In this document: positions 1 through 57,257 of the stretch, piece after piece | Layout of the letters: each line of letters starts with the position of its first letter | Numbering within the stretch: the first letter of the stretch is position 1 | IMG/VR virus record: IMGVR_UViG_3300025326_000022 | DNA length: 64,000 nucleotides | Direction: 5' to 3' (one strand) | Source: an uncultured virus (IMG/VR IMGVR_UViG_3300025326_000022) | Lineage: Duplodnaviria > Heunggongvirae > Uroviricota > Caudoviricetes | Program-made: the position numbers and the translations under genes | Notes under the pieces: model-generated | What the model saw: the letters and a program-made list of their open reading frames with translations, nothing else | Told to the model about the DNA's origin: nothing | Database searches by the model: none

Positions 1-79
1 GTCATCTAGATCGTCGGCGAGGCGATATCCCCATGTGCTCCATCCGACGGGCAATCGCCTCGCCGACGATCTAGATGAC
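1..79. repeat. Perfect 26-bp inverted repeat (1-26 / 54-79) with 27-nt spacer
   Basis: gtcatctagatcgtcggcgaggcgat (1-26) is the exact reverse complement of atcgcctcgccgacgatctagatgac (54-79); left arm runs to the window edge. Confidence 0.95.
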
Positions 80-1636: not shown

Positions 1637-1851
1637 GACAGATCCTTTTGTTTTTGATTGAGTTTCGACTCTTGATGTCCACAGGGACATGCCTGACCTT
1701 CGTGTTCTTGTTGTTGGGTCCGCTCGACACATCGGCCGGACCAACTGGATCGCAAGACCGCTGCCCCGTGGACCAAGGCCCCGTGGCCAACCTGAGGAAT
1801 CAACGAGAGGCAATAGATGAGGGCGTCCAACTCCTGGGCGCAGAAATGCAC
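1633..1851 (-). CDS. small hypothetical protein
   Basis: AGGAGG RBS before GTG; stop overlaps next ATG (ATGA). Confidence 0.45.
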   Translation of the reverse strand: MHFCAQELDALIYCLSLIPQVGHGALVHGAAVLRSSWSGRCVERTQQQEHEGQACPCGHQESKLNQKQKDLS

Positions 1852-21929: not shown

Positions 21930-22914
21930 CCCTGAGGGCCTCCTTCCAGTCGCTGTAGTAGTAGTCGAGCTTCTGGATCACGAGGTCATCCTTTTGGCGG
22001 CACACCCACCGGTAGAAGGCTCGGAACCTCTGGTCCCAATCCTGGTGCATCGTGACGTTGGCGACGACGTCGCCCATAGCCTCCAGTTCCCGGTTGTTCC
22101 GTGGAAGCACCCGGAGGAGATCGTGCTGCTTCGCCACCTCGATCATGGTGTTGGTGATGGTCAACAACACCACCCTAGCGCATAGATCGGTCATGTGGCC
22201 CGGGGTCCCCTTGAGGACCCAGCTGACCTGGAGCTTGGATGGATCCCGGTAGTAGGACTTCTGGACGATGAAGTTGTTCAACTGGTAGGCCAGGGCCTCC
22301 TGGGCCAAGAGCTTGTCCTTAAGGTCTTGCTCAAGATCCCGGGGGATCTGGGGTTCCGATGAAGGTAGTTGCAGTAGCTTGCCCCCGGGCCGCAGGCCAG
22401 ATCCATCCCCTCCGGCTCCTGGAAAGGCGAGGGCCGGGGGCTCTTGGCCCCTTTCTTCCACCTTCTCTTCCTCTTCTTCTCTTAATATGTGAGCAGTTTC
22501 TGCTCGGGTTTTTGTGCCAAACTGAGCAGTTTTCGATCGGCTATGTGAGCATTTTTCGATCAGGTCGGGTGAGCAGTTTCTGATCACGTCTGTGCGTTTG
22601 AGTGCATCGGATGCCTGGTCCAACGTGAGGATCTGGAGGTAGTAGGCTCCATCCTTCGGAAGCACCAACCCCATGGATACCAGGCCCTCCATCCCCAAGC
22701 CGGTGGTCCGGCGGGTCATGCCACACATCTTAGCTATCCGGGAGATCGACAACCTTGCAGGATGCCCTGTGTCCATTGATTGGTTCCTGGCCAAGGCCCC
22801 CAGGATCTTGATCTGGTTGCCCGACAGAACCTTCCAGAACATGTCGAAGAACTCTACCGTGGTGCCGAAAAACACGGATCCTTTAGGTAAGTAGCGGGTC
22901 ATGGCGATGGGCAT
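21919..22914 (-). CDS. putative replication initiator / winged-HTH protein
   Basis: N-terminal HTH (LSISRIAKMCGMTRRTTGLGMEGLVSMGLV); linker encoded by iteron-like repeats; GGAG RBS. Confidence 0.65.
   Translation of the reverse strand: MPIAMTRYLPKGSVFFGTTVEFFDMFWKVLSGNQIKILGALARNQSMDTGHPARLSISRIAKMCGMTRRTTGLGMEGLVSMGLVLPKDGAYYLQILTLDQASDALKRTDVIRNCSPDLIEKCSHSRSKTAQFGTKTRAETAHILREEEEEKVEERGQEPPALAFPGAGGDGSGLRPGGKLLQLPSSEPQIPRDLEQDLKDKLLAQEALAYQLNNFIVQKSYYRDPSKLQVSWVLKGTPGHMTDLCARVVLLTITNTMIEVAKQHDLLRVLPRNNRELEAMGDVVANVTMHQDWDQRFRAFYRWVCRQKDDLVIQKLDYYYSDWKEALRANG
22490..22585. repeat. four iteron-like direct repeats, candidate origin
   Basis: TGAGCA(G/T)TTT(C/T) at 22490, 22523, 22546, 22570, three continuing to GATC; adjacent pyrimidine tract 22451-22483. 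Confidence 0.8.
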
Positions 22915-22941: not shown

Positions 22942-24609
22942 TCATATGAAATCGTCTTCATCTTCGAGCTGGTCGTTGTGGATGATCTGGATATCCTTCC
23001 GCATCATCCGGGCGACCAGGAAACAATAGTTGAGCGAATGGATCGCGTCGTCAGGACGCAAGGGGGAGTGAGTATATAGGATTCTCCCGAGTTTGTCCGT
23101 CGCGACCGCGACGTTGAGGAAATCTTGGCCGAACTCCTCGACGTATCCTTCAAACACCTCGATGGTCTGGGACTTCATTGCTTCGAACAGGTGGGTCATG
23201 GACTCGGTGCGGCTCACGATGTACTTCTTGAGATTCCGGTTCCACTTGATCAGGGCCTTCTGGCCATGGGCGTAGACGAACTCCGAACACTTGGGAAAAT
23301 CGGTCCTGATCCTGGTGTTCTGGCTCCACCCGGCCCCGAAGTCCAGTCCCATGAACACGACACGAAATTTCTTAGCAATTTCAAGAATGTAGCGCACCTG
23401 GTACAAAGGGTTTACCTCGTGCCCTACCTTGAACCTCTTGCAGAAGATGACCTGAAACTTACCGTGTTGATTCCACCCCCCGATCGTCACGACGGTATAG
23501 CTGATGTCCCCGTAGCCCCAATCGACCCCCATGATTGGCTGTGGGATGTACTGCTGGTCCACCGACATGGGGAGCCGGTTGGCAGCCCGCCGGAGATCCG
23601 ACGTCGTGATGGGTTTGACCCCAAGTTCGTAGCTGCGGCCCAGGATCTCGTTGCTGATCCTGGCGTTACTGTAGGTCTTGAGTTTGTTGTACAGTTCATC
23701 CCAGTGGTCCAGAACCATCGGGTTGATAACCTGGGGGATTCGGTACCCGATGTACATGTCTTTCTTGCCAGGGGCCTGGTGGACCCATTGGCCCTCCAGG
23801 ACGTTGAGATTCTGTTGACATTTAGAACAAATGGGTCCTGTGGTCCCGATGTTCTCGATCTCCATGATGTTCTCATGGCCCTTGGGGCACCGGGTTACCC
23901 ATTCGCCTTGCGTCGAGTAATCAGCCCAATAGGACCCGATCAGGCAGTCCGGAGTATTGGCTGTCCCGGTGATCAAGATCCTGCGGCCGAACCGGTCATG
24001 GTGCGAGTGCGTCAGGGTCTCCTGGAGGACAGGCAAGTGGCTCGGGATCATCTCCTGGGCCTCGTCGACCAACAGTTGGTCCGACGGGATCCCGCGGGCC
24101 GAATCGGCCGTCAGGTAGGCAGAGCGCAGCAACACAGACGAGCCGTTGGAGAACTCCTTGTGGTACAGGTTATCCACCACCTCCTTGCCCAACAGTTCGC
24201 GCAACAGGGGACTGGCCCGTAGGGTGCCGTCGAGCTTGTCATAGGCGAATGTCCGGGTGTGCTTGTCTGTTGGCGCGACGTACAGGGTTCGGAATCCCCG
24301 GAGCCCGTCGAGTTGCGCTACCGCAGGGAGTAGCATCATGTTTGATAAAAACGAGCTTTTTTCTATCTGACGGCCCCCAATGACAACCATGCGCTTGTGC
24401 CATCGGTCGTACAGTGGATACAGGTACGGCCTGCGGGTAAAGGTGAAGGGCATCCCGCCGCCATCCCGCAGCCGGATGATCTTGACCGCAAGGCTAGATG
24501 GAAGTTGCTCCACCACCTGGACGTCGGTGGTGGCGTTGGGATCAGGTGGAGGCTTCCATCGATGCAGCGGTTTAGGGCTTTCCTGCCAACTTCTCGGCTC
24601 GCGCAACAA
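22942..24609 (-). CDS. terL: terminase large subunit (lambda gpA-like)
   Basis: GGRQIEKS Walker A, LLVDE Walker B, ITGTA, zinc motif, GVDWG and PDDAIHS nuclease motifs. Confidence 0.9.
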   Translation of the reverse strand: MLREPRSWQESPKPLHRWKPPPDPNATTDVQVVEQLPSSLAVKIIRLRDGGGMPFTFTRRPYLYPLYDRWHKRMVVIGGRQIEKSSFLSNMMLLPAVAQLDGLRGFRTLYVAPTDKHTRTFAYDKLDGTLRASPLLRELLGKEVVDNLYHKEFSNGSSVLLRSAYLTADSARGIPSDQLLVDEAQEMIPSHLPVLQETLTHSHHDRFGRRILITGTANTPDCLIGSYWADYSTQGEWVTRCPKGHENIMEIENIGTTGPICSKCQQNLNVLEGQWVHQAPGKKDMYIGYRIPQVINPMVLDHWDELYNKLKTYSNARISNEILGRSYELGVKPITTSDLRRAANRLPMSVDQQYIPQPIMGVDWGYGDISYTVVTIGGWNQHGKFQVIFCKRFKVGHEVNPLYQVRYILEIAKKFRVVFMGLDFGAGWSQNTRIRTDFPKCSEFVYAHGQKALIKWNRNLKKYIVSRTESMTHLFEAMKSQTIEVFEGYVEEFGQDFLNVAVATDKLGRILYTHSPLRPDDAIHSLNYCFLVARMMRKDIQIIHNDQLEDEDDFI

Positions 24610-27921: not shown

Positions 27922-29043
27922 CTACGATAGTTTGGTGTCACGAGCCAACGCCTGGGCCAGGGAAGTCTTGAACGTCTCGATCGACCCCTTGGTAGTCGTG
28001 ACCGCAGGGGCAATCTGCTGGAACCCAGGTTGTAGGGCTGCCAAAGGACCTTGCGCCGCAACAGCCAAGGCGGCCCCCGTGGCCGCCAGGCTGTCCATCA
28101 AGACGGACATACCCGTGAGGAACGCCTCCAACTGGGTCTTGAGGGTCGTGCCCAAGACCGCTGGTTCCGTGGCATTTGCCAATTCTACGCCTGAGTCTCC
28201 ATTTAGTTTCGCCTTCCCGGTAGCCGACATGTTGAATTCACCCTCGACCGTCATGTCGAAATCATCAGTGAATTCGAGCGTCGTGCTCGCGGCCGTGACC
28301 TTGAGGTTACCGGCCCGGTCGACAGTGCAGCGAAACACTTCTTCGCCATCCTTTTGCACAGCCCTGTGGTCCACGGGACGGTCTGGCATGTCGGTCACGT
28401 CGGTCACGTTCCCTTGCTTCAACACCAAGACCACCTCACCCTTGCTGAATTCCTTGACCTCGTAGACCAGCTCCACCGGGGTCCCGTCGATCCCCTTCTC
28501 ATCCCGACGGTTCTTCCAACGGAACTCGCCCCCGGCGGTCTCGAGGGTATAGTTTTCACAGATGTCCTTGATCTGGTGGAGCAGGGGGATGAAGATCCGG
28601 CGGGTCACGGGGTCGGCCGCGATGTCGACGATTCCACCGGCATGCACGTGGACGTAGTTCCCTGATTCCGACGACATCATGGTGTCACCCGGCCGCATGG
28701 CCTTGCGGCGACCCCGGGCGTAGCCCCTCTGGGCCACCACCGGGAGGAACATCAGGATCACGGGGCTCCGGACGTCCGACAGGTGGGCCACGATGCACTT
28801 GTCCCCCACCTGGGGCATGTACCCCATCATGGTGCCGTTGCGACTGACCCCCAGGCCCCCGATCTCAATGTTCGACGGTCTACGGCCCGAGAACTTGCAT
28901 TCCAGATCACACGTCCACAGATCTGGATCCACCCGCACGACTTCCGCCGTTTCAATCAGGACAGGCCGATCCGGCGGTACCCACCCGCCCCCAGGGTCTG
29001 GTAACTTCAGGCTCGTGAGCTGATCATCGCGGTTCAGCACCAT
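27922..29043 (-). CDS. putative baseplate spike (gp5/gpV-like)
   Basis: OB-fold-like N-terminus (YMPQVGDKCIV), beta-repeat middle, AVLG.TL C-terminus; TAATG coupling to RNAP stop. Confidence 0.65.
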   Translation of the reverse strand: MVLNRDDQLTSLKLPDPGGGWVPPDRPVLIETAEVVRVDPDLWTCDLECKFSGRRPSNIEIGGLGVSRNGTMMGYMPQVGDKCIVAHLSDVRSPVILMFLPVVAQRGYARGRRKAMRPGDTMMSSESGNYVHVHAGGIVDIAADPVTRRIFIPLLHQIKDICENYTLETAGGEFRWKNRRDEKGIDGTPVELVYEVKEFSKGEVVLVLKQGNVTDVTDMPDRPVDHRAVQKDGEEVFRCTVDRAGNLKVTAASTTLEFTDDFDMTVEGEFNMSATGKAKLNGDSGVELANATEPAVLGTTLKTQLEAFLTGMSVLMDSLAATGAALAVAAQGPLAALQPGFQQIAPAVTTTKGSIETFKTSLAQALARDTKLS

Positions 29044-32000
29044 TACCCTGCTGTTTTGGGATCTTGAATCTTGCCGAACCCGATGGACGGCAGGGGCCAC
29101 CGACCCGCTATGTCGGCCTTCGCGGCCGTCAGGACCCCGGTCTCCATGGTGCCGCGGAGTCGCTCGAACGACATCTTGGCTGCCCAATCATCCGTCCGGA
29201 TCAAGGGCATGGTGTTGACCCCCCGGATCATTGGGTTGGCCTTGACAGCCCCGCCATCTTCAATCTTGACCCTATTGATATTGTGATCCTTGAGGTCCTT
29301 GGCCACCAGGTCCGTCACCTCGGTGCCACGGCCATACTTGAGGTACTTCTCCGCCAGTTTTTTTCCAATGGCCCAGTCGGGCGCCATGTAGCGGCGGTTG
29401 AACGCCTCGATCTTGGCCATCGAGACGACATCACCACGCCCGAACCCCGAGGCACCGTCGGCCTGATCCACCACCCCGAGGTCAGTCATGTGGCGCACCA
29501 CCGTTTCGATGTGGCGCTTGTCAACCCCAAGGGGTCCGTAGAGTTCGTGGAGAGACCCTACCATGTGGTTCTGCGCGGCCCCAATGCCCGCGAGGCTGGC
29601 GAGCTGGTGGACATTCACCTGACCAGACGAAATCTTGTCCCCTTGTTGAACCTTGGTCCCAACCTTAACCTCCAGGGTCCTGGACGCCGGGACAAATTGT
29701 TCCTTGGTCCCAACGAAGACCTTCCATCCGGTCGCGGTCTTGTTGATCGATGTCACGGTACCGGTCACCTGGCTCAGGACGGCCTCGTCCTTAAGACGAA
29801 GCGGCGCTTTCAGCAGGGTCTCGGCCACGGCGAACTGATCCACGAGTTTCGAAGCCTTGGATGCCACGCCGCCTTCATGAAACAGCTTCATGGACAACTG
29901 GGTCGTGGGTTCCCCAAGGGACTGGCCACTGATCACCCCGATGTTGGTACCGACGGACGGATCGTTACCGTCGTGCCACCGGCCAAAACACTTGGCACAG
30001 ATGCCATCATGAGCTTCACATTTCAACGGAGTCCTGACCAACAGTTTCGATACCCCTGCGTTGCGGGCCGACATCACGACCGTGCCATCCACAAGAGTGT
30101 CCTTAGCTACTGACTTGTTCCCGATCTTCTGGGCCTTGGCCAGGTAACGCCCGATGATGTCACGACTCTTCACATCCTCGTATATCCCCTGGCTCGTCTG
30201 GCAATCTTCCGTGGTAACCCGGGCATCTGCCACCGTGCTGATGATCTGGCGGGACAGGTACCCCGGGAGCGCGGTCCCGCGGGACTTCGAGATCATGCCA
30301 AGCCGAGCCCCGTGGAGTGTGGTCCAGTAGTCCCCGAGTTTCAAGCCTTCGGCATACGACCGGTTGATCGGCTTGGGGGCCACGCGGCCCGCCTCCGTTG
30401 AAATCATGCCAGGCGATAAGACAATCTGCTTCAACTGGTCGAATGTCCCCCGGGCACCCGAGACAACGGTCTTGTACAACCCGTTGTCCTGGGCCGAGAG
30501 CCGGCGCTTGGCCTCGTGCTCGACCTTATCACGGGCCGTGCTGTACTGTTCGATCCGGCGGACCGAGTCCGTGGCGTTGGGAAGATGCTTGGCCAAATCT
30601 TTCATCGGCTTGAGATCCGCCATGCTGACCGACGCCCCGAGGGTAAAGGCAGCCTTGTCCCCCAGTTGCCGCATGGTCGTGAGGAACTGGGGGAAATCGG
30701 CCGGCTGGGTCTTGCCCACCTGGACCATCAGGCTGTTGACCTGATGTTTGTCCAGACGGAATTTTCGGTCGTACGCGATCTTCTGGTACCAGTCGTCATG
30801 TAGACGACCCATGGGGATCGCGTTGGCCACCAGGAGGCGTCCTAAGGTCGTCTTGCGCCCCCCAAAGGTCACGACGTCCTGGAGGCGAACCTGTCGACGG
30901 CCATACGCTTCCATCAATTTGTCGAAACTTTGGAACACCTGGTTTGTGTTCCTCCCCTCCTCGGTCAACAGGTAAAGCCCCAACTGCTGCTCATGCTGGG
31001 GCTTGTGCATCAGGGATCCGGACTTCACGCCGAAGAGGTTCCGGCTCGGGACGAGACCCTTGGCCTCTTCCTTCGCCGCCTCGGTGGCCGGGACGTAGAC
31101 CGATACGGTGTTGGACAGCACGACACCCTCGACGTTCATAAAGGTCTCGTGCCCCGGGACCGTGAGGTCGTAACCCGTCTCCCGAATACCCGTGACCTCC
31201 ACGGATTCCACCATGTCCCACGTAACATCCGTCTGCTGGACGATGTTCCACCACAGAGCGCCATCGGGGTGGGCCACAATCTGATTTATTGACACGTAAG
31301 ATGTGACTCGTTCAGCAGCATCTCGTGTTACATAGCCTTCTTTCGCTGCCTTGTTAAAGTTGAAATACGCATTCTTGCGAGCCTGCGGGGCGCTGCGTTC
31401 CATAGGAATACTTTTGTAGATGTGCTGGGCCAAGGAAACAGAGATAGGAACAAGATCGTGGCGCACGAGAGATGGGGTAATCCCTATCTCGATTGAACGT
31501 AATAGCTCCAGTTTATGTGAGCACGCCATACCTGCGCCGCCCCACCTCTTGACATCGTAGTTTGAGAAGCTAACTATCCATGAGGGCTTACCTGTAGAGG
31601 ACGACTTAAAAGCCGTGATACGTCCACGTACTCCTAGTGACGCCGCTAATAACAGTACCTCACGAACCAGGCGCAAACTGATGCTCGTAAAATTGGACAT
31701 CAACTGAGGCTTGCTTTTAGCTGTAGAAACCGAAATCGATCCGTCGGTATCCATCAACCCCGCGAACAAGCCCCTTCTAAATTCCAATGGAGATGTCAAA
31801 AAGAACGGAGGCAAGTGTTTGTTCTCCGCACCTTTTCCAATCCATCCCGCGAGAACTTTGCCAGCACTACTCGCAGAAAACGAGGCTCTTCGGCTTTCAC
31901 CGTAGGATGTGGTGACGTGCGCGAGACTAAAAGGCACAAGCCCTGTCTGCATCATCTCCGCGAGGCCTTCGGCAAACCGGAGTACCACATCATCATCTAT

Positions 32001-35000
32001 CGATGCTAGGCAGATCTGATCTATAGAAGAAACCCATCCATCGCCAGCGGCAGCCCCAAGGAAATAACCGAGTTTCTCTGTCAGTACAACTTCCGGAAAT
32101 ACTTGGTGTGATCGAGGCCTATTAGAGTTCTCCGCCCCTGTGAATGCATTGTGTAGTATTTCAGGGATGCTTAAGCGCTGGCCTCGAGGAACCAGCACCC
32201 GAGACTCGACTGCGGTAGCAGGTTGAAAGCGTCCGTAAAGTAACGTACCAGCGGCCATTCCGTAGACCGCACGGGGATCGTCGTCCGATACGATCTGTCG
32301 TCCAGATGCCAGTGTGATGATCTCTATTTCACGATCCAGATGCTTCGACCATACGGTCACGGGTGACCACACCAGTGCGCCGACAGTCTCATCTAAGGCT
32401 AGAACGTAAACTCCATTGGGCACCGCGTAGAACTCGATGGGACCCTTTTCTCCTTGCTTAGCTCCAATCAATTCACCGTGAGGAAAATCCTGCAAGTCTA
32501 ACAGGAACACCATCCCGTGGATGTCCATCGTCGGTAACACAGTTTTCAAACGTGCAGTCATGTCTTCGGCTCCTTGTTCCAGTATATGCTGGCACAAAAC
32601 CGAATCCGTTGCAAATACAACAACAGTGTCCAAAATTTGGTCCCCATCGAAATCTGCCCCATATCCCGTCGTCACGCTCGGGGGAATCCGAATCGTGTTG
32701 CCGGACGAAGATTTCGCATGGAACGCCTGGATACCAAACTTGTGGAGCACAGGATCTCGTTTCATCAGGACGGGACGATCCTTTAGCTCGTTGAGCAGCG
32801 CGGTCTTGGCTACCTCGGTCTTGTCCTTCACATGCTCCGCCGCCTTGGCGACCGGATATCCCGACTGCACGAGCGACCGGGTGACGAACGGGCCGAACAG
32901 TTCCCATAGGGCCTTGTCCGGCACCTCGATGGTGTCGACGTCGAGCTCGGGGTTCGGCACGATGGTGCTGCGGGCGCTGAGGTCTTGCCGACGCTTCAAT
33001 ACCTTCTTCTGGTAGAATCCGTACTTCGGGCTCGTGCCCGAGATCAACTGCATCACCCCCTTCATCGTTCGGTTGTGGGCGCTGTACCCCGAGATCGCGA
33101 CAGCGTCGACCATGTCCTGGATCGCGGCAGACCGCTGGGCCATCATTTCGGGAGGTAACTTCTTATCCCCTTGGTTCACCGCCTCGATCGTCTCCCCGAG
33201 CTTACGATACAGTTCATTGATATCCTCGTTGCTGATGGTCCCGTTCTTATTCACCACGATGGGGCGGAACAACGGTGGCAGCACGGGAAATTTGGTAAGG
33301 CAGTAGGCCTGGTCGGCCGTGTAGCCCAACTCCTTCAAGGCCTTGAGGTACTTGCGGGTCTTGTTGATCGTGTTGACATTCGACGGTGCCGCGGTCTCGA
33401 GATCCTGTTCCACGGTCTTGAGGCTCTTGTCCACGTCGATCCGGGCCAACAGGTTCTGCACCGCCGCACCCCCCACGACCGTGGCTTCAACGACCGGGAC
33501 GATATCGCCTTTCTTATTCAACCCCAGGTGCCCCTCGAGAATCTTGTCCACAAGGGTTCCGCCGTGATCGGGATGGTGGTAGGCCAACAGCCTGACGGCA
33601 CCGTCCCGCGTCACCGGGTTGACCACGGGGAACGGGAGGTTCATGTGGGTGTACTTCTTGCCATGGAGCCCACCGGTCCGTTGGGAATCGAAGATACCCC
33701 CTTGGTACGGCCGGAGCTTCGCGTCGAGCGCCTGGCCGGGGTTCTTCAATTCGCCGGCCGACATGGTCTCGATGTCTCGATCCGTCATGGGGAGCAGTTG
33801 GAGCGAATTGCCATCCTTCTTGACATGTACCCCCATGGCTTCCAGGAGCGCGAGAAACTTGGTTGCGGTGAACGGCACCTCGGCGGCCGGCAAGACACCT
33901 CCGTTCTTCAATGTTGACCAAAACAAAGCATTCTGAGCGTCCCCCTTGTACGAGAACATCTCCTTGAGGTTCGCCGTTGCCCCGTTGGCCAACAGGGCGT
34001 AGGTGTCGAGGATACCGATCGATTGGCCACCTTCGGAACCGCCCTTCGATGGAATCTTGTCACCCGTGTACTGGAGCCTTTCCCCCGTGGTCTTGGACAC
34101 TGCCCCTCGAGCCGATAGCTTCTTATCAACCTGATGGGTCAACTTAAAGATGTATTGGTTGCCCGTGAGCACCGGGTTTTCCGTGGGTCCGTCGACCGGA
34201 TCCACCACGATTTCGCGATCTTGAAGCCCATGCTTCTTCAACATGTCGGCCACGTACTTATGGTTGTCTTGCTCGGAGGCGAAGTTGTCCACCACCACGG
34301 GGTTCCCCGTCTTGGCCGCCACCTTGCCCACGAGGGTCTCGTACACTTGCCCCAGGTTCACACGCCCGACGACAGAATTACCAGACCATACTGGCACACC
34401 ATTCCTACGAACATACAGTAGCCCGCTGGGAACAGTCAAGCAGAATACATCGCCTTCGTAATGTACCCACTTTTCCACTTGTGCATGTTTTTTCCCTGGC
34501 CAATTAACAGAAGGTGTTGACCGTTTCAAAAAACTGACCACAAAGATATCCGTAACGGTTTCTCTGAAACAACTAATTTGTGTCGTTATCTGTGCAGAAA
34601 CACCAAGCTTAAGCGCAAGTTCCTGCACGTCGTCCGCCAGACCTTTCGAGGCCGTAAAATACCTCCGGTTGTCGTAGTGGGACGTTTGAGGTGAATTTCG
34701 TGTCGATCCATCGCCCAGCATGAGCCCGTTAAGCAGTAATTCTAAGGTAGCGCTCGGCCACGCCAGTGCCTGGCGTGGTATACGTTTGTTCTTGGCCCCT
34801 GTGCCCACATGTTCCATGAGCCAAAGGCATAATTCCCTATTTCGTGCAGTCCACTCAACTTGACCGTTGTCTCTTTCACGCCTGGAAAACGACCACGGTA
34901 ATAGAGCCAAAAAGCGTTCGATCTCCACGCATTTATCTGGATTCAATCTCTGTGACTGACTTAAACCCACATCATAGATGCCACCCTCTCGCCTACACGC

Positions 35001-37877
35001 CCAGCCTTCGGCGATGAACACTCCTAGGAACTCGGCAAATTCACTGGGGGCTATTTCCAGTTTTCTTGGGTCGGCTTTTGGCCCAGTACCATCACGATCT
35101 TCAGGTTCTCCGAAGCGCACAACCTCTGCAGAACTACCCACCCATTTTTCAGAATTCTTTAAGTAGTAGCGCCGCTGGCCAAAAATTTTCTTCGCTTCAT
35201 TGATTTCATACGGCGATTTCTCATTGCTGTCTCCTTTTCGCGTGTACATCCTATGGTTTGGCGTTACCATAAGGTCAAGTTTTTTATTCTTGATCCTGTA
35301 CATTGGCCCAACATAAAAACTTCGATGAACTGCCAGCACACTTTCATATACTAACTCTCCGTTTGGATGCATAGACGCTACGACGTCGCCTTGACTAACC
35401 TGTGAGAAAGGCAACCACCCATTTTCTGTCAAAACTTCTGTCTTGTCGTCGTAACACGCGGGGTTCATCAGGATTTCGAATGGCTTGCCCTCGAGGTCAT
35501 GGGGCATCTCGGCATCCGGGACAATCTTGCTGATGATCCCTTTGTTCCCGTGGCGCCCAACCAGCTTGTCTCCTTCGACGGCCGGTTCCTTGGTCTTCAC
35601 GTGGACGATGTACTTTTTGGCGAACTTCTCCACCGCGGTCACGACCCCGGGGTAATCTTTCTCCCACTGGATCGAGGAGTCACCGAACGATTGGAACGCC
35701 CGGGTCCCGACCCGAAGGATCGCTTCGCTGTCCGGATCAACTTCTTTCTCAAACATTCCCGCGTAGAGGTAATCCCCTCGGCTGACTTCCTGCCCCACCG
35801 TGATGACGCCGTCGGAGTCTAATTTCTGGGACTGGGCATGGGAGATGTTGTTGGGAAAATAGTTACGGAATTTGTCTCGACCCGAGATCGACTTCTCCCC
35901 CAACTCCACGACGAACTGGTGGAGATGATCGCTAGTCAGCTTGGTGGCTGCGGACTCGCTGATGGCCAAGGCATCCTCAAACAACAGGCCCTTCCACGGG
36001 ACGTACGCGACCCGAAGGTTCGTCCCAAGGGCAAGGGTCCCGTTCTTCGTGTAATTGGTATCGGCCAACACCTGACCCTTCTTCACCTTATCCCCCACGG
36101 ATACCAAGGCCTCGGAGTTGATGTACCCCTTGGAGTTGTTGAGTGGAAAATCTCGATACGTGTTGACTACCGAGGAAGCCCCGGCCTTGTCCTTCACGAT
36201 GATTTTGCCTTGCCGGACAGACGAAACTTCACCATCCACTAGACTGAGGCTGGCCCCAAGGTAGCGACCGAACCCCTGCTCAGCGGTCGAATCGGAGCGA
36301 CCGTACTTCAGTTGTACCAGGGGGGCTTCCCGATGGGTCAAGGAGATGGCCTGCTCGATCTGACGAGACGCCGTCATGGCCCTGACGCCGTTGTTCGATC
36401 GAAGAAAAGGGATCAGGTTGGTCGTGTGGTGGAACAGTCCCGCCTGGGAAGCTGGGACGTATTGAACCTCGGATGGCGGGTAGTCTCGCACGTCACCCCG
36501 GTGGGAAGCCATCACCTTGCTGGATTTTGCCTTCGGTGGCTTGACCTCAAAGTCATACTCGTCAGGGAACGCCACCACGGTGTCGAACACTTGTTTGGGC
36601 GTGAGGTCCACCTCCTTGCCAGTCTTCACGTCCATGAAGGTCGCGACCAGTTCGTTGCCCCGCTTCCTGGCCAACGAAGACAAGAACAAGGTTGTCCCGA
36701 TGGTCGAACCTTCCGGTGTCTTGATCGGGTCCAAGAACCCCATGTGGGACGAATGGATCGTCCTCATGTCGTCCCGAATCATGTTGGGGTCTGATATCCC
36801 CCCGGGACCCCGGAGCGTTGTCTTGCCGGTACCCGACAGAATGTCTACGACATTGTGCTGTTCGCGCCGTTGAGCCAACGGGGTCGCGGTAAAGAGCTTC
36901 CCGATCGCCGGCATCAGGATGGAGGTCGAGATCGTATCCTCCACCTTATTGGCGTGAGGCAATTTGTTGGAAATCTTTCGCCGTACTTCGCTTCCATGTT
37001 TCAGGATCCACTCACGAAGATAGTCCTCGTAGTAATGGACCGACTTGGTCACCAGGCTGTTGGGGTCATCCTCCTCTGTCTCCCCTCTGACCAGCTTGAA
37101 CAGTTTCTTCATGGTCGTGAGGATCGCGGTCTTGTCGACCGAAGATAACCTCATGCCCGTGGTGTACTCGGTGGCATCAGGATCAAGCTTGCTGTCATGG
37201 AGCGCCTGGACGATCACCTGGTAATCCGGTTTAGGTCCAGGGTCCAGGTCGAACAACGCCTTGTAGAGCTTGCTGTAGTCCCCGGGCTTCGCCTTCCCCA
37301 GGTTCGCGGTTGCGACCTCCTTGCCGACCGCAAGTTCAAGCTCTTGGACCGACACCCCCATGAGATCCAACAGGGTCGCGAGGGGTACGTGGGAAGTCCC
37401 TACCCCAAGGGTGTAGACCTTGGTCTGGGGATCAAAGAATATTTCGGTATTGCGGTAATATTTCCCCTCGGCCGAAATCCTGGAGGCAAACTCTCCCGCG
37501 TCCGTCACCCGGGTGTATATCCCTGGCTTGAGTCGAAACTGAGTATCGAATTGATACTCCTGGCCTCCAAAGATGAAGGTATGGCGAGCAGTCTTCTGCG
37601 GCAAGGTCATGAGCTTGACCCGACCCGTGTCCTTGACCTTTCCATTTTGATCCAACAGCGAGAACAGCCCCGAGACCGACATCCCCCAGACCCCTGATTT
37701 CAACTTGGTTTGGCGCTGAGATTCGTAATCCTGGGGGTCAAGCCGCTGGTCTACCTGCACACCGTCAAGCCGCAAGGTCTTGTCCCCCACGGTTATGTCG
37801 GTGAAGACTTCTTTGATCGCCCGTTCTACCGCGTCTTTAGCGTGACCGTCGGATTCCTCAGTTGTAAAGTATGCCAC
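29043..37877 (-). CDS. rpoBC: single-chain DNA-directed RNA polymerase, beta-beta' fusion, two inteins
   Basis: Beta motifs (TPEG..IG, GDKLVGRHGNKG, KLTHQVDKKLSAR) run in-frame into beta' motifs (RRQDLSARSTI, RDPVLH, GADFDGD, GYLSRQ, GEPTTQLSMKLFHEGG). Confidence 0.95.
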   Translation of the reverse strand: MAYFTTEESDGHAKDAVERAIKEVFTDITVGDKTLRLDGVQVDQRLDPQDYESQRQTKLKSGVWGMSVSGLFSLLDQNGKVKDTGRVKLMTLPQKTARHTFIFGGQEYQFDTQFRLKPGIYTRVTDAGEFASRISAEGKYYRNTEIFFDPQTKVYTLGVGTSHVPLATLLDLMGVSVQELELAVGKEVATANLGKAKPGDYSKLYKALFDLDPGPKPDYQVIVQALHDSKLDPDATEYTTGMRLSSVDKTAILTTMKKLFKLVRGETEEDDPNSLVTKSVHYYEDYLREWILKHGSEVRRKISNKLPHANKVEDTISTSILMPAIGKLFTATPLAQRREQHNVVDILSGTGKTTLRGPGGISDPNMIRDDMRTIHSSHMGFLDPIKTPEGSTIGTTLFLSSLARKRGNELVATFMDVKTGKEVDLTPKQVFDTVVAFPDEYDFEVKPPKAKSSKVMASHRGDVRDYPPSEVQYVPASQAGLFHHTTNLIPFLRSNNGVRAMTASRQIEQAISLTHREAPLVQLKYGRSDSTAEQGFGRYLGASLSLVDGEVSSVRQGKIIVKDKAGASSVVNTYRDFPLNNSKGYINSEALVSVGDKVKKGQVLADTNYTKNGTLALGTNLRVAYVPWKGLLFEDALAISESAATKLTSDHLHQFVVELGEKSISGRDKFRNYFPNNISHAQSQKLDSDGVITVGQEVSRGDYLYAGMFEKEVDPDSEAILRVGTRAFQSFGDSSIQWEKDYPGVVTAVEKFAKKYIVHVKTKEPAVEGDKLVGRHGNKGIISKIVPDAEMPHDLEGKPFEILMNPACYDDKTEVLTENGWLPFSQVSQGDVVASMHPNGELVYESVLAVHRSFYVGPMYRIKNKKLDLMVTPNHRMYTRKGDSNEKSPYEINEAKKIFGQRRYYLKNSEKWVGSSAEVVRFGEPEDRDGTGPKADPRKLEIAPSEFAEFLGVFIAEGWACRREGGIYDVGLSQSQRLNPDKCVEIERFLALLPWSFSRRERDNGQVEWTARNRELCLWLMEHVGTGAKNKRIPRQALAWPSATLELLLNGLMLGDGSTRNSPQTSHYDNRRYFTASKGLADDVQELALKLGVSAQITTQISCFRETVTDIFVVSFLKRSTPSVNWPGKKHAQVEKWVHYEGDVFCLTVPSGLLYVRRNGVPVWSGNSVVGRVNLGQVYETLVGKVAAKTGNPVVVDNFASEQDNHKYVADMLKKHGLQDREIVVDPVDGPTENPVLTGNQYIFKLTHQVDKKLSARGAVSKTTGERLQYTGDKIPSKGGSEGGQSIGILDTYALLANGATANLKEMFSYKGDAQNALFWSTLKNGGVLPAAEVPFTATKFLALLEAMGVHVKKDGNSLQLLPMTDRDIETMSAGELKNPGQALDAKLRPYQGGIFDSQRTGGLHGKKYTHMNLPFPVVNPVTRDGAVRLLAYHHPDHGGTLVDKILEGHLGLNKKGDIVPVVEATVVGGAAVQNLLARIDVDKSLKTVEQDLETAAPSNVNTINKTRKYLKALKELGYTADQAYCLTKFPVLPPLFRPIVVNKNGTISNEDINELYRKLGETIEAVNQGDKKLPPEMMAQRSAAIQDMVDAVAISGYSAHNRTMKGVMQLISGTSPKYGFYQKKVLKRRQDLSARSTIVPNPELDVDTIEVPDKALWELFGPFVTRSLVQSGYPVAKAAEHVKDKTEVAKTALLNELKDRPVLMKRDPVLHKFGIQAFHAKSSSGNTIRIPPSVTTGYGADFDGDQILDTVVVFATDSVLCQHILEQGAEDMTARLKTVLPTMDIHGMVFLLDLQDFPHGELIGAKQGEKGPIEFYAVPNGVYVLALDETVGALVWSPVTVWSKHLDREIEIITLASGRQIVSDDDPRAVYGMAAGTLLYGRFQPATAVESRVLVPRGQRLSIPEILHNAFTGAENSNRPRSHQVFPEVVLTEKLGYFLGAAAGDGWVSSIDQICLASIDDDVVLRFAEGLAEMMQTGLVPFSLAHVTTSYGESRRASFSASSAGKVLAGWIGKGAENKHLPPFFLTSPLEFRRGLFAGLMDTDGSISVSTAKSKPQLMSNFTSISLRLVREVLLLAASLGVRGRITAFKSSSTGKPSWIVSFSNYDVKRWGGAGMACSHKLELLRSIEIGITPSLVRHDLVPISVSLAQHIYKSIPMERSAPQARKNAYFNFNKAAKEGYVTRDAAERVTSYVSINQIVAHPDGALWWNIVQQTDVTWDMVESVEVTGIRETGYDLTVPGHETFMNVEGVVLSNTVSVYVPATEAAKEEAKGLVPSRNLFGVKSGSLMHKPQHEQQLGLYLLTEEGRNTNQVFQSFDKLMEAYGRRQVRLQDVVTFGGRKTTLGRLLVANAIPMGRLHDDWYQKIAYDRKFRLDKHQVNSLMVQVGKTQPADFPQFLTTMRQLGDKAAFTLGASVSMADLKPMKDLAKHLPNATDSVRRIEQYSTARDKVEHEAKRRLSAQDNGLYKTVVSGARGTFDQLKQIVLSPGMISTEAGRVAPKPINRSYAEGLKLGDYWTTLHGARLGMISKSRGTALPGYLSRQIISTVADARVTTEDCQTSQGIYEDVKSRDIIGRYLAKAQKIGNKSVAKDTLVDGTVVMSARNAGVSKLLVRTPLKCEAHDGICAKCFGRWHDGNDPSVGTNIGVISGQSLGEPTTQLSMKLFHEGGVASKASKLVDQFAVAETLLKAPLRLKDEAVLSQVTGTVTSINKTATGWKVFVGTKEQFVPASRTLEVKVGTKVQQGDKISSGQVNVHQLASLAGIGAAQNHMVGSLHELYGPLGVDKRHIETVVRHMTDLGVVDQADGASGFGRGDVVSMAKIEAFNRRYMAPDWAIGKKLAEKYLKYGRGTEVTDLVAKDLKDHNINRVKIEDGGAVKANPMIRGVNTMPLIRTDDWAAKMSFERLRGTMETGVLTAAKADIAGRWPLPSIGFGKIQDPKTAG
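31110..32639 (-). mobile_element. atypical intein (510 aa) with LAGLIDADG endonuclease, directly after DFDGD
   Basis: DFDGD|QILD...LGAAAGDG...AGLMDTDG...YDLTV...VVLSN|TVSVY. Confidence 0.8.
34377..35456 (-). mobile_element. intein (360 aa) with LAGLIDADG endonuclease in beta region
   Basis: MNPA|CYD...VTPNH...GVFIAEG...GLMLGDG...VWSGN|SVVGR. Confidence 0.9.
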
Positions 37878-37880
37878 CGG

Positions 37881-39740
37881 CTACACCAGGGCCTTGTGGC
37901 GCCGAGGCGGCCGCTGATCCGGCAGTGGTTTCATATTGTCATTGGGTTTCTGGCCCAGGATCCCAATGATCATCTGGAGGCTCTGGGGGTCAATCTTCTG
38001 ACCCAATTGCTGGAGCGCCTGGGCCCGTTCCCCTTCCTGCAACCCTGCCAATTCCTTGACTGCAGACTTGATCTGCTTTTCCGACAACACCATGGGGCCT
38101 TCCTGACCTTCGGGCTGGCCCCCGGGCTGACTTCCTTGGACACCCCCTTGTTCCGCCTGGGCTTGCGCCTGGGTCGAGGGCATTCCCTGGAGCCTGCTTG
38201 TCGATTTCATGGCCTCCATCTGGGCGTTGCTTTGGTACCTGGCGCCAATCACCTGGGCTTTGCCTTGGTTCTCAGCGCTTTGGAGGAATTGCTTTTGTTC
38301 CATCCGGTTACGAGCCCCAAGCTCCGTTTCGATCATCTTCTCTTCATCAGCAGGATCAAGGTTGAACTCCTCGAGCAATGTCCTGGCGGAAACTCGATTC
38401 ATCTGGTTCAGCTGCATCAGGATGCTCTTGCGCTGAATATCGTCAGCCGTCCGGAGTGAAGTAAACTCAACCGTAGGGGGCTCGATCCGAAGGACATTAC
38501 AGATCGACGAAGTGATGAACTTGACCAACTTAAGTAGCTGGCTCTGGTGGCGTAGGAACTGGTTCTCCAGCATCCGGAGGGTCACGCTACTGCCACTGTA
38601 AGTCGAACCGCCGAACGCAAACTCAATTGGAGCGTTCAACGACATCACGATGCTCTCGGACAACTGCTTGAGTTCGTTGGTCAACAGGAGTGATTTTCCC
38701 TGGCCCCCAAGATACTGGAACCCAATGGGCATCGGGAGCATCGGGATATAGTTTTGATCTTGCCGCCAACGGGCCAACTCTGACCGGGCAGTCGATTGCC
38801 ATGAAGTCAAATCCATCGTTTGGATTGGATCCACGTTTGTTGAGGTAGCGGGGTGGAGGATCCGCAAGGGCACGATATGTTCGTGGGCAATGACCTCTTG
38901 GGACTTCTTCAACACCTGCATGAGGTAGAGGTCTTTCATCGCCGGGAGAACCAACGGGATCCCCAGGCCCATGTCCTGGCCCGCGAGGCTCGGGCGCCTC
39001 ATGTGGAATACATTCTGGCTGTTGAGAAGAATCTTCTCCTTTCGCTTGACCGCATCGATAAACACCTGGGGCGTATCGTTGATCAACAGGGTGTTGCCCT
39101 CGGTAATGGCCTTGGCAGTGGTCATGGGGACCGACAAGATGTAATACGACATCCCGTTGGCTTGGTTGAAAAACACCTCCACGTCCATCACGTCCCATCG
39201 GATCAAGTTGATCTTCCTGGACGATGCTATCGCCATGTCCCGTACTGTAGCGATCGCTACGGAACCGCATCGAGGACAAGGACTAAGCTTGAATTCAAAT
39301 CGCTCGAATTTGTAATTTACCGTGTCGGCCGCCATCTCATGCTTGCACGCCGTGCAGGTGAGCATCTTGCGGATCGGATAGTGAACCGACATGTAGGCGT
39401 TGCCGAACACCAGGACATTGACCCCAACCTCAATGAGGAAGGATTCAAGGTTCAGTTGCTCTTCAAACAATTCGACATAATCGTCGGTGGATTTGTTCTT
39501 GGTCTTCTGGCCGTACCGGAGCTTAGTCACTGGGTAGTAGGCCATCCGGTTGATCACGTTGTTGACCAGCCCGTTGCCAAGATAGTAGGTCTTGCAGAAA
39601 CTAAACAGGTGCTTGACCGTGGTCGGCATGTAGGTCTGGGCCACGTCGAAGAAGGGGTTTGGGTACCGAATGGTACCGCCCCGCGCGACAAAGTCCGTAA
39701 CCGTAGAGGGCCGATCTGGATTACCAAACGTAACACTCAT
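37881..39740 (-). CDS. portal protein
   Basis: 619 aa; FGNAY, FHMRR, GIPLV, LNAPIEF portal-like pattern; Q-rich tail; zinc-ribbon insert. Confidence 0.75.
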   Translation of the reverse strand: MSVTFGNPDRPSTVTDFVARGGTIRYPNPFFDVAQTYMPTTVKHLFSFCKTYYLGNGLVNNVINRMAYYPVTKLRYGQKTKNKSTDDYVELFEEQLNLESFLIEVGVNVLVFGNAYMSVHYPIRKMLTCTACKHEMAADTVNYKFERFEFKLSPCPRCGSVAIATVRDMAIASSRKINLIRWDVMDVEVFFNQANGMSYYILSVPMTTAKAITEGNTLLINDTPQVFIDAVKRKEKILLNSQNVFHMRRPSLAGQDMGLGIPLVLPAMKDLYLMQVLKKSQEVIAHEHIVPLRILHPATSTNVDPIQTMDLTSWQSTARSELARWRQDQNYIPMLPMPIGFQYLGGQGKSLLLTNELKQLSESIVMSLNAPIEFAFGGSTYSGSSVTLRMLENQFLRHQSQLLKLVKFITSSICNVLRIEPPTVEFTSLRTADDIQRKSILMQLNQMNRVSARTLLEEFNLDPADEEKMIETELGARNRMEQKQFLQSAENQGKAQVIGARYQSNAQMEAMKSTSRLQGMPSTQAQAQAEQGGVQGSQPGGQPEGQEGPMVLSEKQIKSAVKELAGLQEGERAQALQQLGQKIDPQSLQMIIGILGQKPNDNMKPLPDQRPPRRHKALV

Positions 39741-41521: not shown

Positions 41522-42796
41522 ATGCTTTGGTTACCCCGGGGTACCCCCGAGGCCGATAAAGCCATGTACGACCTACAGTATATTGTACTACCCACCGGAA
41601 GGGCAACCGTGGCCAAGGTGGTGAAACTGTACCACGAGACCCCCGACCACATCGTGGCCCCAAGGCACTACCTTGACCTCGCCTCTACCCCTACGCACTA
41701 CCGTGGCCCCAAGGATTTCCCCACGGTGGCGGAGCACTGCGCTATTGTCCCGAGGGACCAGTTGCAGGTCGATGCCATCCAGTTCCTCCGGGACGCCGGG
41801 ACCCTGCCCCCAGGGCAGTCCGACGCTATCGTGAGTCTTCGGTGCGGAGAGGGCAAGATGTACATCGCCCTCAAGGCCGCGGTGGAGTACGGTCGCTGGA
41901 CCCTGGTGGTGGCCCACACGAAAGACATCCTGGAACAATGGACCGAGGTGATCCTGAAGGAGACGTCGATCAAACGGGTAGGCCGGGTGATATCCGGAGA
42001 TCTTGATCTCCAGCCCTTCACCGTCGCGCTGGTCCAGTCGGTCCTTGCGCTCGATGAAACTAACAAGCGTATGCTAGGCGAAATATATGGATGCATTATT
42101 ATGGACGAGATGCATCATCTCGCTGCCCCCGTGTTCTCCGGGGTGGCCAATGCTTTCCCAGGGCGCCGCATAGGGTTGTCCGCCACCCTGGCGCGAGAGG
42201 ACTACCTGTCGTTCGTCTACTACCATGCCTTGAGTAAGAACGTGTTCTATCGAGACTCCACCAGGGCCAAGGCCTCGGTATTCTTCCGGCTCGTCCGGAT
42301 GGATGACCTGCTGCTGGACGACAACTACGCCGTGGCGGTCACCCAGTTGGCCGAATCGGAACAATACCTCGGGGTCCTGGAGACAGACATTCGAGAAGGA
42401 TACCGTCAACTTCGAAAGCAACTCATCATCTCGAGCCGTCGGCAAGTATTGTTGAACCTCAGGGACAGGTTGCATGACCTTGCCCCCGGGATCAACATCA
42501 TGGAAACTCCGGCAGATGTCCGGCTCGCGAACCTCCGGACCAAGCCCATTACCTTGGCAATCGAGCTATTCGGAAAAGAAGGATTGAGTGAACCATCACT
42601 CGATACCCTCAGGGTCGTGACCCCGATGAAAGACCGCAACGCCGTGGTCCAGACGGTTGGGCGGCTCGAACGTGAAGGCGGGCAAGAACCGCAGGCATGG
42701 TTTTACGCGGCGCGGCACCCAGCCTTCATCAGGACACTGAACAAGACAATGGAATCCCTGACGGTCTCGGGCTACAGGGTCCAGAAGGATGTGTAA
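41522..42796 (+). CDS. superfamily 2 helicase-like protein
   Basis: CGEGKM (Walker A variant), DEMH, GLSAT, EGL, QTVGRLER. Confidence 0.8.
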   Translation: MLWLPRGTPEADKAMYDLQYIVLPTGRATVAKVVKLYHETPDHIVAPRHYLDLASTPTHYRGPKDFPTVAEHCAIVPRDQLQVDAIQFLRDAGTLPPGQSDAIVSLRCGEGKMYIALKAAVEYGRWTLVVAHTKDILEQWTEVILKETSIKRVGRVISGDLDLQPFTVALVQSVLALDETNKRMLGEIYGCIIMDEMHHLAAPVFSGVANAFPGRRIGLSATLAREDYLSFVYYHALSKNVFYRDSTRAKASVFFRLVRMDDLLLDDNYAVAVTQLAESEQYLGVLETDIREGYRQLRKQLIISSRRQVLLNLRDRLHDLAPGINIMETPADVRLANLRTKPITLAIELFGKEGLSEPSLDTLRVVTPMKDRNAVVQTVGRLEREGGQEPQAWFYAARHPAFIRTLNKTMESLTVSGYRVQKDV

Positions 42797-43475
42797 AATG
42801 GACAAACGAAGTGATATCAAACAACTATTCGAAGAGTACAAGGGGTGCCTCCGGTGTCCTGACCTGTGTACGCGGCGAACCAAGGTGGTGTTCGGTGAAG
42901 GTGGGATAAATGCCAACCTCATGATCATCGGGGAACCACCTGGCGCCTACGAGGATAAGGTCGGGTTCCCCCTCAGGGGTGAGGCCGGGAGTCTGTTGGA
43001 CGAGATATTCACCCCCCTGGGGATATCACGCCAATACGATGTCTACATCACCTCGATGGTGCTGTGCCGGCCATCATACGATGAGGACACCGACGAAGGG
43101 ATCAAGCGTAAGCCGAGATCACCTACACGAGACGAACTACTCGCCTGTAACCCAAGGCTCATGCAGGAAATCTACATCGTGGACCCCAAGATCATCCTGC
43201 TGCTAGGCGAGAGAGCCGCGACCCTTGTGACCCGCAACACCATCACCAAGGCGTCCGACACCGTCCATTACCTCGAGGTTCCTGGCAAAAGCATTGCCAA
43301 GACACTTCGATACCCCGCGGTGGTGTCGTGGGACCCCGGGAAAGTCGCCCGTGGGTCCATGGTGGAGAACCCGGGGACACAGTTGACACAACTCAAGGAA
43401 GCCGTATCGGTGGCCTGGAGTGCCGCGATGTCGGCCAAAGAATTTAGCAAGGAGCTTACCCATGAATCGAAATGA
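42789..43475 (+). CDS. uracil-DNA glycosylase family 4-like protein (divergent)
   Basis: CLRCPDL, VFGEG, IGEPPG..ED, LCRP, LAC, ILLLG. Confidence 0.8.
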   Translation: MCKMDKRSDIKQLFEEYKGCLRCPDLCTRRTKVVFGEGGINANLMIIGEPPGAYEDKVGFPLRGEAGSLLDEIFTPLGISRQYDVYITSMVLCRPSYDEDTDEGIKRKPRSPTRDELLACNPRLMQEIYIVDPKIILLLGERAATLVTRNTITKASDTVHYLEVPGKSIAKTLRYPAVVSWDPGKVARGSMVENPGTQLTQLKEAVSVAWSAAMSAKEFSKELTHESK

Positions 43476-48410: not shown

Positions 48411-49021
48411 TCGAGGATTACGCCCGGAACCTGGGTCCTGGGGGGCTGCTGGCCTACGTGGCCTCCCAGGACCTGGTGGTCGCGACGGACTTATATTCCG
48501 TCATGGCGATTCGGGAAGCATCCAAACTACTGGTACCCATGCGACTCAGGGCCATCGGGATGTACGCACGTCAGAACGCCGAATTACCGTCCACCGAAAT
48601 GCTTGACCCCAAGGCCAAGTACGACGTGGACCAAAAGTTCAAAAGCTTGATCTACAACAAAAGTCTCTTCATGTCCGACATCGTGGCGCTGGCGGAAGCC
48701 CAGGCCGACGCCGGGCCTCAGGAACGCCTCCCGCTTGTCAAGATGGGGGAGAACTCCGAAGGGATCGTGTTTCTAACGACCAATCGTCACAACGAGGTCG
48801 TCCATGTTGGGATACGGTATTACCGAAACCTGCTGGATAACAAGCTGGTACAACTTTACTCAGGGGTCAGGGATTCGTTTCGAGAACCAACCCATTCGTG
48901 GCGTAGCCTGCCGGTCGCGGCCAAGGGGGTCTTTTATCGCGCTGGAATCAACATCTATGGGCTGGTGATGCCACATGCCAAAATTTCACTCCCTTCTACC
49001 ATACATCGAAATCAAGACTGA
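48356..49021 (+). CDS. hypothetical protein
   Basis: 221-aa ORF filling the gap before polymerase. Confidence 0.6.
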   Translation: MATRFQYLKSERSALRGLIEDYARNLGPGGLLAYVASQDLVVATDLYSVMAIREASKLLVPMRLRAIGMYARQNAELPSTEMLDPKAKYDVDQKFKSLIYNKSLFMSDIVALAEAQADAGPQERLPLVKMGENSEGIVFLTTNRHNEVVHVGIRYYRNLLDNKLVQLYSGVRDSFREPTHSWRSLPVAAKGVFYRAGINIYGLVMPHAKISLPSTIHRNQD

Positions 49022-57228: not shown

Positions 57229-57257
57229 AAAGGCGGCGCTTCTGTGCCGCCTTTTTT
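57229..57257. terminator. probably bidirectional intrinsic terminator
   Basis: AAAGGCGGCGC-TTCT-GTGCCGCCTTTTTT between convergent genes. Confidence 0.85.

Follow-up and report, generated by a model that had tools for sequence, protein, structure and literature searches.

Phages phiKZ and AR9 encode RNA polymerases (RNAPs) of the multisubunit type, one form of which is packaged in virions; enzymes of the phiKZ type are made of 4-5 polypeptides, with two sets per genome and no sigma factor, as far as the consulted portions of two publications go (PMC7598289, PMC7824862). Another design is that of gp66 of crAss-like phages and of the tape-measure-fused RNAPs exemplified by Thermus phage P23-45: these are single-chain two-barrel enzymes delivered in virions, and they are so divergent that beta and beta' Pfam domains are not recognisable in them, according to the available part of PMC7481178. 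The same source (Weinheimer and Aylward 2020) describes as the mReC clade uncultured RNAP-encoding tailed phages with cellular-type beta and beta' subunits, and its main text, in the part available, applies the word 'fused' to crAssphage only. Here we consider a gene found in a stretch of 64,000 nucleotides (nt), called the window below, from an uncultured member of the Caudoviricetes, the source phage (IMG/VR record IMGVR_UViG_3300025326_000022; Duplodnaviria, Heunggongvirae, Uroviricota). This gene encodes a beta-like and a beta'-like moiety in a single open reading frame (ORF), which is interrupted by two inteins. We consider it fairly probable that its product is the sole RNAP of a tailed phage of ~180-200 kb, and that it is a fused two-barrel core, dependent on a sigma factor and probably packaged.

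The precursor is 2944 amino acids (aa) long. Its GTG start is backed by homology, since an intein-free relative, P0004 (2071 aa, 66% identical and colinear with the RNAP at both intein junctions), starts with MAY where the RNAP starts with VAY. In Pfam, beta domains (Rpb2_3 and Rpb2_6, the latter with an expectation (E) value of 4.9e-47) are recognised in the first third of the ORF and beta' domains (Rpb1_1, Rpb1_2, Rpb1_4 and Rpb1_5, the last at E 1.3e-27) in the rest, together with the intein-related domains Hint, LAGLIDADG_3 and Intein_splicing. A family profile, made from 30 intein-free relatives, could be aligned with residues 49-229, 420-932, 1049-1128 and 1177-1340 of Escherichia coli beta and with residues 27-63, 150-951 and 1132-1347 of E. 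coli beta'. At the junction, beta residue 1340 corresponds to profile position 988 and beta' residue 27 to position 999; the gap is of eleven positions and the end of beta (...LLEAMGV...) therefore directly joins beta'. The catalytic Mg-binding loop, GADFDGD (aa 1740-1746), has its D, F, D, G and D columns invariant in the family; the conserved-lysine motif of beta, DKLVGRHGNKG (aa 770-780), aligns with E. coli beta 1049-1128; and the bridge helix and trigger loop region is kept, the profile aligning through E. coli beta' 747-951. The best PHROG matches, phrog_24349 and phrog_25354, are families of unknown function, and those annotated 'RNA polymerase beta subunit' match far more weakly (1e-7 to 1e-17). 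As bacterial beta' is matched in the PDB at 1e-34, the enzyme is closer to it than to these annotated families, which we take to be of the phiKZ type. A megablast search of phage records with the gene gave no match.

Large parts of the cellular subunits are missing. The unaligned E. coli stretches presumably represent the lineage-specific insertions of beta and beta', and E. coli beta' 64-149, the zinc-binding domain, is replaced by only 29 profile positions, which are Cys-free. The usual four-Cys N-terminal domain was not found, aa 1168-1525 being devoid of any Cys. There are only five Cys in the exteins (1526, 2559, 2620, 2627 and 2630), and four of them, C2559, C2620, C2627 and C2630, align with the E. 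coli DCGT and C..C..C residues of the second beta' zinc site. A first-pass annotation of the window, made from the sequence alone, had reported these main traits, and they hold: a length of about 2074 aa without both inteins (807 + 579 + 688 aa from the junctions colinear with P0004), a beta end LLEAMG running into beta', the loss of the first zinc-binding domain and the retention of the second zinc site. It had also recognised no alpha, omega or sigma gene in the window, and none of the 49 window ORFs that we scanned has a Pfam match to these proteins. For alpha (PF01000) and omega (PF01192) the search was extended to five records, i.e. four complete relatives and G001, an IMG/VR record of the same phage that overlaps the window at ~24140-64000 and reaches 38.6 kb past its right end; none of the five matches, while the controls of this search were positive in 14 genomes out of 14. 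Each of the four complete relatives contains exactly one Rpb2_6 match. In the rifampicin pocket, the family consensus is E/G/T at the columns of E. coli D516/H526/S531, a composition from which insensitivity to rifampicin may be inferred.

The first-pass annotation had named an assembly error as what would undo the fusion. The identical ORF (100% identity) is present in six contigs from six differently numbered IMG/VR datasets, complete in four and partial in two, and the RNAP protein has been recorded on 10 contigs, of up to 118,967 bp. The fused layout is also that of most relatives. When the junction piece (aa 1168-1747) was run with HMMER against all 1.84 billion representatives, 4841 matched at E <= 1e-3, of which 1075 at E <= 1e-30; among the best 150 representatives, 44 are 2000-2099 aa long and about 75 are longer. 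In a word-indexed search, 620 clusters with lengths of 1619-5152 aa reached E <= 1e-30; their database names, where there are any, are automatic ('subunit beta''). In IMG/VR, at least 671 stretches encode relatives, and the best 80 of these correspond to 78 loci, the largest contig being of 202 kb. When the three copies of the source phage are set aside, 75 loci remain: 59 have one ORF spanning the whole protein (at least 2250 aa in 11 of them), 6 are split in the manner of Salmonella phage Arash, and 10 are cut by contig ends. It could still be supposed that the gene has been disabled by a decayed intein, a view that the non-canonical second intein might favour, or that the ORF is an assembly chimera or a cellular contamination. 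We regard this as extremely improbable: besides the repeated recovery of the ORF, the frame is open over 2944 codons, the same type of intein with invariant motifs occurs in 17 clusters, and the flanking genes (portal, terminase, DNA polymerase) are those of a phage.

The enzyme had been treated as lacking a specificity subunit. This proved incorrect: a gene for a sigma70-family protein is carried by G001, i.e. on the same phage but outside the window. The protein scores 38.5 bits against Pfam Sigma70_r3 (cut-off, 25.3); region 2 taken alone is weak in Pfam (E 0.006). A six-member profile matches RpoS at 4e-12 and aligns over positions 37-232 with residues 386-599 of E. coli sigma70, that is from region 2 to region 4, and an AlphaFold model is all-helical with a mean predicted local distance difference test score (pLDDT) of 72. 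Homologues are present in 5/5 complete relatives, of 178-202 kb (all 100% complete by CheckV, two having terminal repeats), and, at E <= 0.01, Sigma70_r3 is matched at one place in each of five records searched, above the cut-off in four. The predicted complex of sigma with aa 1351-1746 of beta' scores 0.80, and the best of three controls 0.14; of 157 solved complexes, 116 attain the mark that it passes, as do 2 of 215 mismatched pairs. The runs have at least 56% of contacts in common, with a partner pLDDT of at least 73, and in the modelled interface the clamp helices (aa 1548-1589) face sigma residues 49-64 and 92-104. Since sigma-beta' complexes have already been solved, the score may reflect mere likeness to a textbook interface. 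It is most likely that the phage RNAP uses the phage sigma70-family factor through the beta' clamp helices.

The same caution about the model leaves some room for a different role, which would weigh against our interpretation: the phage sigma could redirect the host RNAP, for which phage sigma factors have been described (PMC7824862, in the part accessible), and the fused enzyme would then find promoters without sigma. We think this quite unlikely, because sigma and fused RNAP occur together in all five complete relatives, sigma is found alongside the RNAP in Arash virions (PMC10585845, accessible part), and the clamp helices, where the model docks sigma region 2, are kept.

The RNAP gene belongs to a block of virion genes (Table 1). 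The protein encoded upstream is 26% identical to the Arash portal gp204 over 601 aa (E 3e-68), and its TAG stop is followed by 3 nt and then by the RNAP GTG; downstream, the RNAP stop overlaps the start of the next gene as TAATG. Both the 3-nt spacing and the coupling to the following gene had been pointed out before and were retrieved here. In the ESM Atlas, this downstream 373-aa protein is near clusters of Phage_base_V, gp5 and VgrG (feature score 0.96; template modelling (TM) score 0.51-0.53), a lead towards a possible gp5/VgrG-like spike. Of the 67 related loci whose upstream sequence is long enough, 55 have a portal homologue there, and the downstream gene has a counterpart in 49 of 55 loci; the gene order (portal, RNAP, spike-like gene, 674-aa gene) is kept among proteins that are 31-37% identical. 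The portal and RNAP genes are mostly separated by one or two small genes, with a median gap of 1166 nt. In the virion proteome of Arash, the RNAP proteins gp206 and gp216 account for 3516 spectra (the highest count) and 1210 spectra, and the sigma factor gp10 for 467, as given in the consulted part of PMC10585845.

An RNAP made only during infection (middle or late) and left unpackaged, its adjacency to the portal reflecting operon organisation, would accommodate the caveat of the Arash authors that abundant enzymes might contaminate virion preparations (PMC10585845, consulted part), and also the fact that virion proteome data are for Arash only. This enzyme is moreover the only RNAP in the complete relatives and therefore must act after entry in any case. 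We nevertheless find this unlikely in view of the top spectrum count of gp206 in purified particles, where sigma is present too (same report, same limits), and of the portal-RNAP-spike order, which has persisted across proteins only 31-37% identical. Of the earlier proposal of a virion-packaged or late-made RNAP, then, what stands is a streamlined phage RNAP within the virion block, with packaging probable by analogy with Arash; the factor-free reading does not.

Other points also weigh against a packaged, sigma-dependent, single-chain enzyme acting as sole RNAP. G001 is 43% complete by CheckV, so that a second RNAP could be encoded in the rest of the genome, and alpha- or omega-like proteins too divergent for Pfam might exist in the source phage. 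The contamination caveat just mentioned applies to the packaging argument, the virion data having been obtained with Arash. Finally, a single mature chain is not assured, because intein 2 has neither a Cys, Ser or Thr at position 1 nor the block-B His.

This last point calls for a closer look at the inteins. Class 1 inteins have Cys, Ser or Thr at position 1, TxxH in block B, a C-terminal Asn, and Ser, Thr or Cys at position +1. Intein 1 displays all of these (C808, TPNH, N1167 and S1168), its penultimate residue being Gly and not His; it sits in the context ...ILMNPA/SVVGRVN... (a slash marks the junction), where P0004 reads ...ANPA/GIVGRVN.... Intein 2 follows the last Asp of GADFDGD and precedes TVSVYVP, P0004 reading ...GADFDGD/QMSVFVP..., and its first residue, Gln1747, was set by comparison with P0004 and with 36 inserts. 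It departs from class 1 in its first residue, which is not a nucleophile, and in block B, which has no His: SDDDPR stands where relatives starting with Ser, Cys or Thr have S.DH. Class 3 inteins are characterised by a block-B Trp, a block-F Cys, a block-G Thr, a non-nucleophilic first residue, and Ser or Thr at +1. Only the non-nucleophilic first residue and the Thr at +1 of intein 2 are compatible with that class; the Trp-Cys-Thr signature is not there, block F being GYDLTV (an Asp and no Cys), block G VVLSN, and block B having no Trp. Classes 1, 2 and 3 are treated in PMC2807308, consulted in part, and a literature search, in the portions of the sources that were accessible, revealed no non-canonical intein at the DFDGD site.

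Intein 2 is not an isolated oddity. Of the best 150 family representatives, 75 have at least one insertion of at least 100 aa, at about ten sites, the commonest being DFDGD. The family as a whole is an intein hot spot, with 1 to 6 insertions per carrier and a length of 4739 aa in one protein. Three groups can be told apart among the inserts at the DFDGD site. Two mini forms are canonical, starting with S.DL.T and ending with ...HN/T. Fifteen others make up the second group; they start with Ser, Thr or Cys, have S.DH in block B, and end in W-D/T or Y-D/T. In the third group, of 17 including intein 2, position 1 is Gln, Asp, Ala, Glu, Met, His, Tyr and, once, Cys, block B reads TDDDPRAVYG without His, and there is no conserved Cys; these inteins are therefore without both residues that start canonical splicing. 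Their LAGLIDADG motifs are kept, and block F/G, GYDLTVPGYETFM..DGV.LSN/T, is nearly invariant. The AlphaFold model of intein 2 with its flanks (pLDDT 77.6; predicted TM score 0.75) retrieves in Foldseek endonuclease-bearing inteins, TliVMA first (5.8e-17) and then PI-PfuI and PI-SceI. The intein plus LAGLIDADG fold, block F/G, the C-terminal Asn and Thr+1 are features that intein 2 has in common with inteins of the known classes. Two further observations were made at this site. Inside intein 2 (32555-32580, minus strand), a GGAG lies 8 nt 5' of an in-frame ATG (Met1773, MTARLK); an internal start there was rejected, since Met occupies that column in only 11 of the 17 inteins of the group, a conservation that is too low. 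Also, the proteins P0083 (727 aa) and P0141 (913 aa) end 26 residues past DFDGD, both with ...I[RK]DVE after a canonical intein start, SVSGDTWV; they would be compatible with a natural split of the intein at this site, its N-piece being very short, or with truncation.

The number of chains in the mature enzyme, one or two, depends on whether intein 2 splices or cleaves. The description of the enzyme as a single polypeptide, given in the first-pass annotation, is therefore right for the ORF, which is one and fused, and unproven for the mature protein. If intein 2 cleaved by Asn cyclisation at LSN/T, with or without hydrolysis at D/Q and without ligation, there would be two chains, beta-beta'N and beta'C, functionally like the Arash layout. 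The non-nucleophilic position 1 in 16 of 17 inteins of the group, the block-B His lacking in 17 of 17, and the invariant C-terminal Asn and Thr+1 would all agree with this, as would the existence of a two-chain enzyme in Arash (1525 + 606 aa) and in 6 of the 75 loci. We nevertheless hold it to be rather unlikely. The natural split is ~85-90 aa past DFDGD and not at DFDGD; in the absence of N-terminal cleavage, a domain of 510 aa would stay on the catalytic loop; and this intein family is strongly conserved, LAGLIDADG included, as for a mobile element needing clean removal. Possible routes, on which we may only speculate, are a direct attack by Thr+1, a start by the invariant Asp at -1, or cleavage without ligation. 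Because the family is devoid of nucleophile, block-B His and class 3 signature, yet has a C-terminal Asn, Thr+1 and a homing endonuclease, we tentatively raise the possibility that it represents a new chemical route of splicing or self-cleavage, started by the Asp at -1 or by Thr+1, and acting as a gate to the maturation of a single-chain RNAP that is delivered by the capsid, depends on sigma and has neither alpha nor omega.

Table 1. Features of the fused RNAP gene and of associated genes (positions refer to the window unless a record is named)
Feature	Position	Strand	Basis or remarks
Whole fused beta-beta' RNAP gene	29043..37877	-	2944 codons + stop, GTG start; Pfam
Beta-like module, aa 1-1349, including intein 1	33831..37877	-	Rpb2_3, Rpb2_6, GDK..RHGNKG motif
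Intein 1, aa 808-1167, 360 aa, in NPA/S	34377..35456	-	Cys1, TPNH, two LAGLIDADG, end SGN/S
N-terminal beta' part, aa 1350-1746, to catalytic DFDGD (32640-32654)	32640..33830	-	Profile alignment
Cys-free stretch GGIFD...NPV, aa 1393-1425, at place of bacterial zinc-binding domain	33603..33701	-	Profile alignment
Clamp-helix region, aa 1548-1589, modelled dock for phage sigma region 2	33111..33236	-	Model only
Intein 2, aa 1747-2256, 510 aa, in DFDGD/T	31110..32639	-	Gln at position 1, SDDDPR, LAGLIDADG, end VLSN/T
C-terminal beta' part, aa 2257-2944	29046..31109	-	Rpb1_4, Rpb1_5, bridge-helix/trigger-loop region, zinc-site Cys (29988-30203)
Portal gene, stop 3 nt before RNAP start	37881..39740	-	Arash gp204 homology
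373-aa gp5/VgrG-like (Phage_base_V-like) gene	27922..29043	-	ATG overlaps RNAP TAA as TAATG
Large terminase, same strand and block	22942..24609	-	Homology
Sigma70-family gene, 245 aa	G001:C1:11287-12024, ~27 kb outside window		Arash gp10 homologue, E 1e-17

Elsewhere in the window, most ORFs neighbouring the RNAP gene have no match in PHROGs and Pfam, and when promoter-like motifs were sought among direct repeats, the families obtained did not exceed chance level. A third intein of the window, of the LAGLIDADG type, lies at ~aa 579-940 of a family A DNA polymerase of 1020 aa (48975-52037, plus strand). A giant ORF (57256-63999, minus strand) continues into L011:17326-19998 and, together with G001, amounts to ~2686 aa; Pfam recognises in it a right-handed beta-helix (aa 1890-2040) and nothing else, PHROGs give no match, and it is probably a fibre or another large virion protein. 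A 26-nt motif (GTGAGCAGTTTCTG...) occurs three times, nearly in tandem and with spacings of 33 and 47 nt, at 22489-22594, within a 331-aa ORF adjoining the terminase. The first 79 nt of the window (1-79) form an inverted repeat of 31 nt, 94% complementary with a 17-nt loop, which could be a real terminal hairpin or a contig-end artefact. Other ORFs encode a pentapeptide-repeat protein (2638-3450, plus strand), a DUF932 protein (551-1813, minus strand) and a protein of the uracil-DNA-glycosylase superfamily (42789-43475, plus strand).

Under the packaged and sigma-dependent interpretation that we favour, beta and beta' would be translated as one chain forming a bacterial-type two-barrel catalytic core, stripped of the lineage-specific insertions of both subunits and of the beta' zinc-binding domain. 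The 2944-aa precursor would have to shed two homing-endonuclease inteins, which sit in active-centre motifs, NP.G/V in beta and DFDGD/ in beta'. The core would work with the phage sigma70-family factor, bound to the beta' clamp helices, and both, as in Arash, would be packed in the capsid and delivered with the DNA; delivery would then allow phage genes to be transcribed without, or before, the host RNAP. This may be the smallest natural bacterial-type transcription machine, with a chain of ~2074 aa plus a 245-aa sigma factor, and with alpha, omega and the zinc-binding domain not detected in the searches described above; the phages that encode it, uncultured and of ~180-200 kb, make up a very large group. 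If active, it would offer a compact system in which to study the minimal needs of a two-barrel RNAP, it would account for a possible host-independent transcription in these phages, and it would be a natural test case of an essential enzyme with inteins in both catalytic motifs, one of them devoid of splice-start residues.

How does this enzyme compare with the known ones? In the mReC clade, beta and beta' are separate proteins in all 59 rows compared, of the 104 rows for metagenomic phages, in contrast to the fused protein of the source phage; some rows are sized like the Arash layout, e.g. 1487 + 1303 aa (PMC7481178, consulted part). The comparison was made by protein layout, and the contig identifiers of the source phage are absent from the supplements of that paper. 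From the phiKZ type, which had been taken as reference at first, the source phage differs by having one chain as ORF, one Rpb2_6 match per complete relative, and a sigma factor. It differs from the gp66 and P23-45 type by scoring strongly on cellular Pfam models. Cellular beta-beta' fusions are those of Helicobacter and Wolbachia rpoBC, in which beta precedes beta' in one polypeptide, the same order as in the source RNAP; in these bacteria, the subunits are of full size, work with alpha2 and omega, and have kept the zinc-binding domain. Since a sigma gene was found, the useful comparison is with the Arash-like lineage (one RNAP plus sigma) and not with phiKZ. A tblastn search of 50,697 phage records pointed to the same lineage, retrieving Vibrio phages D69, D148 and D181 and Salmonella phage Arash at ~30% identity (E 1e-82, 5e-83). 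Arash is the closest cultured relative, with 32% identity to gp206 in an alignment and E 9e-57 for gp216. Arash and D69 have the beta-beta' junction where the source phage has it, and in Arash-like phages, as here, the RNAP gene comes just after the portal gene and a sigma homologue is present. No comment on the fusion by the Arash authors was found in the accessible part of their report (PMC10585845), nor did literature searches uncover a published description of a fully fused form. Both intein sites of the source phage are empty in Arash gp206 and in its D69 homologue, and the Arash-like beta' is cut ~85-90 aa after DYDGD, giving two chains (1527 + 609 aa in D69), whereas that of the source phage is in one ORF. 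A split of the relatives at the intein 2 site itself is ruled out, the Arash and D69 proteins running beyond DYDGD by that length. The fully fused, intein-laden RNAP is thus a new variant of a phage RNAP lineage that is already known, if barely characterised, from Arash and its relatives.

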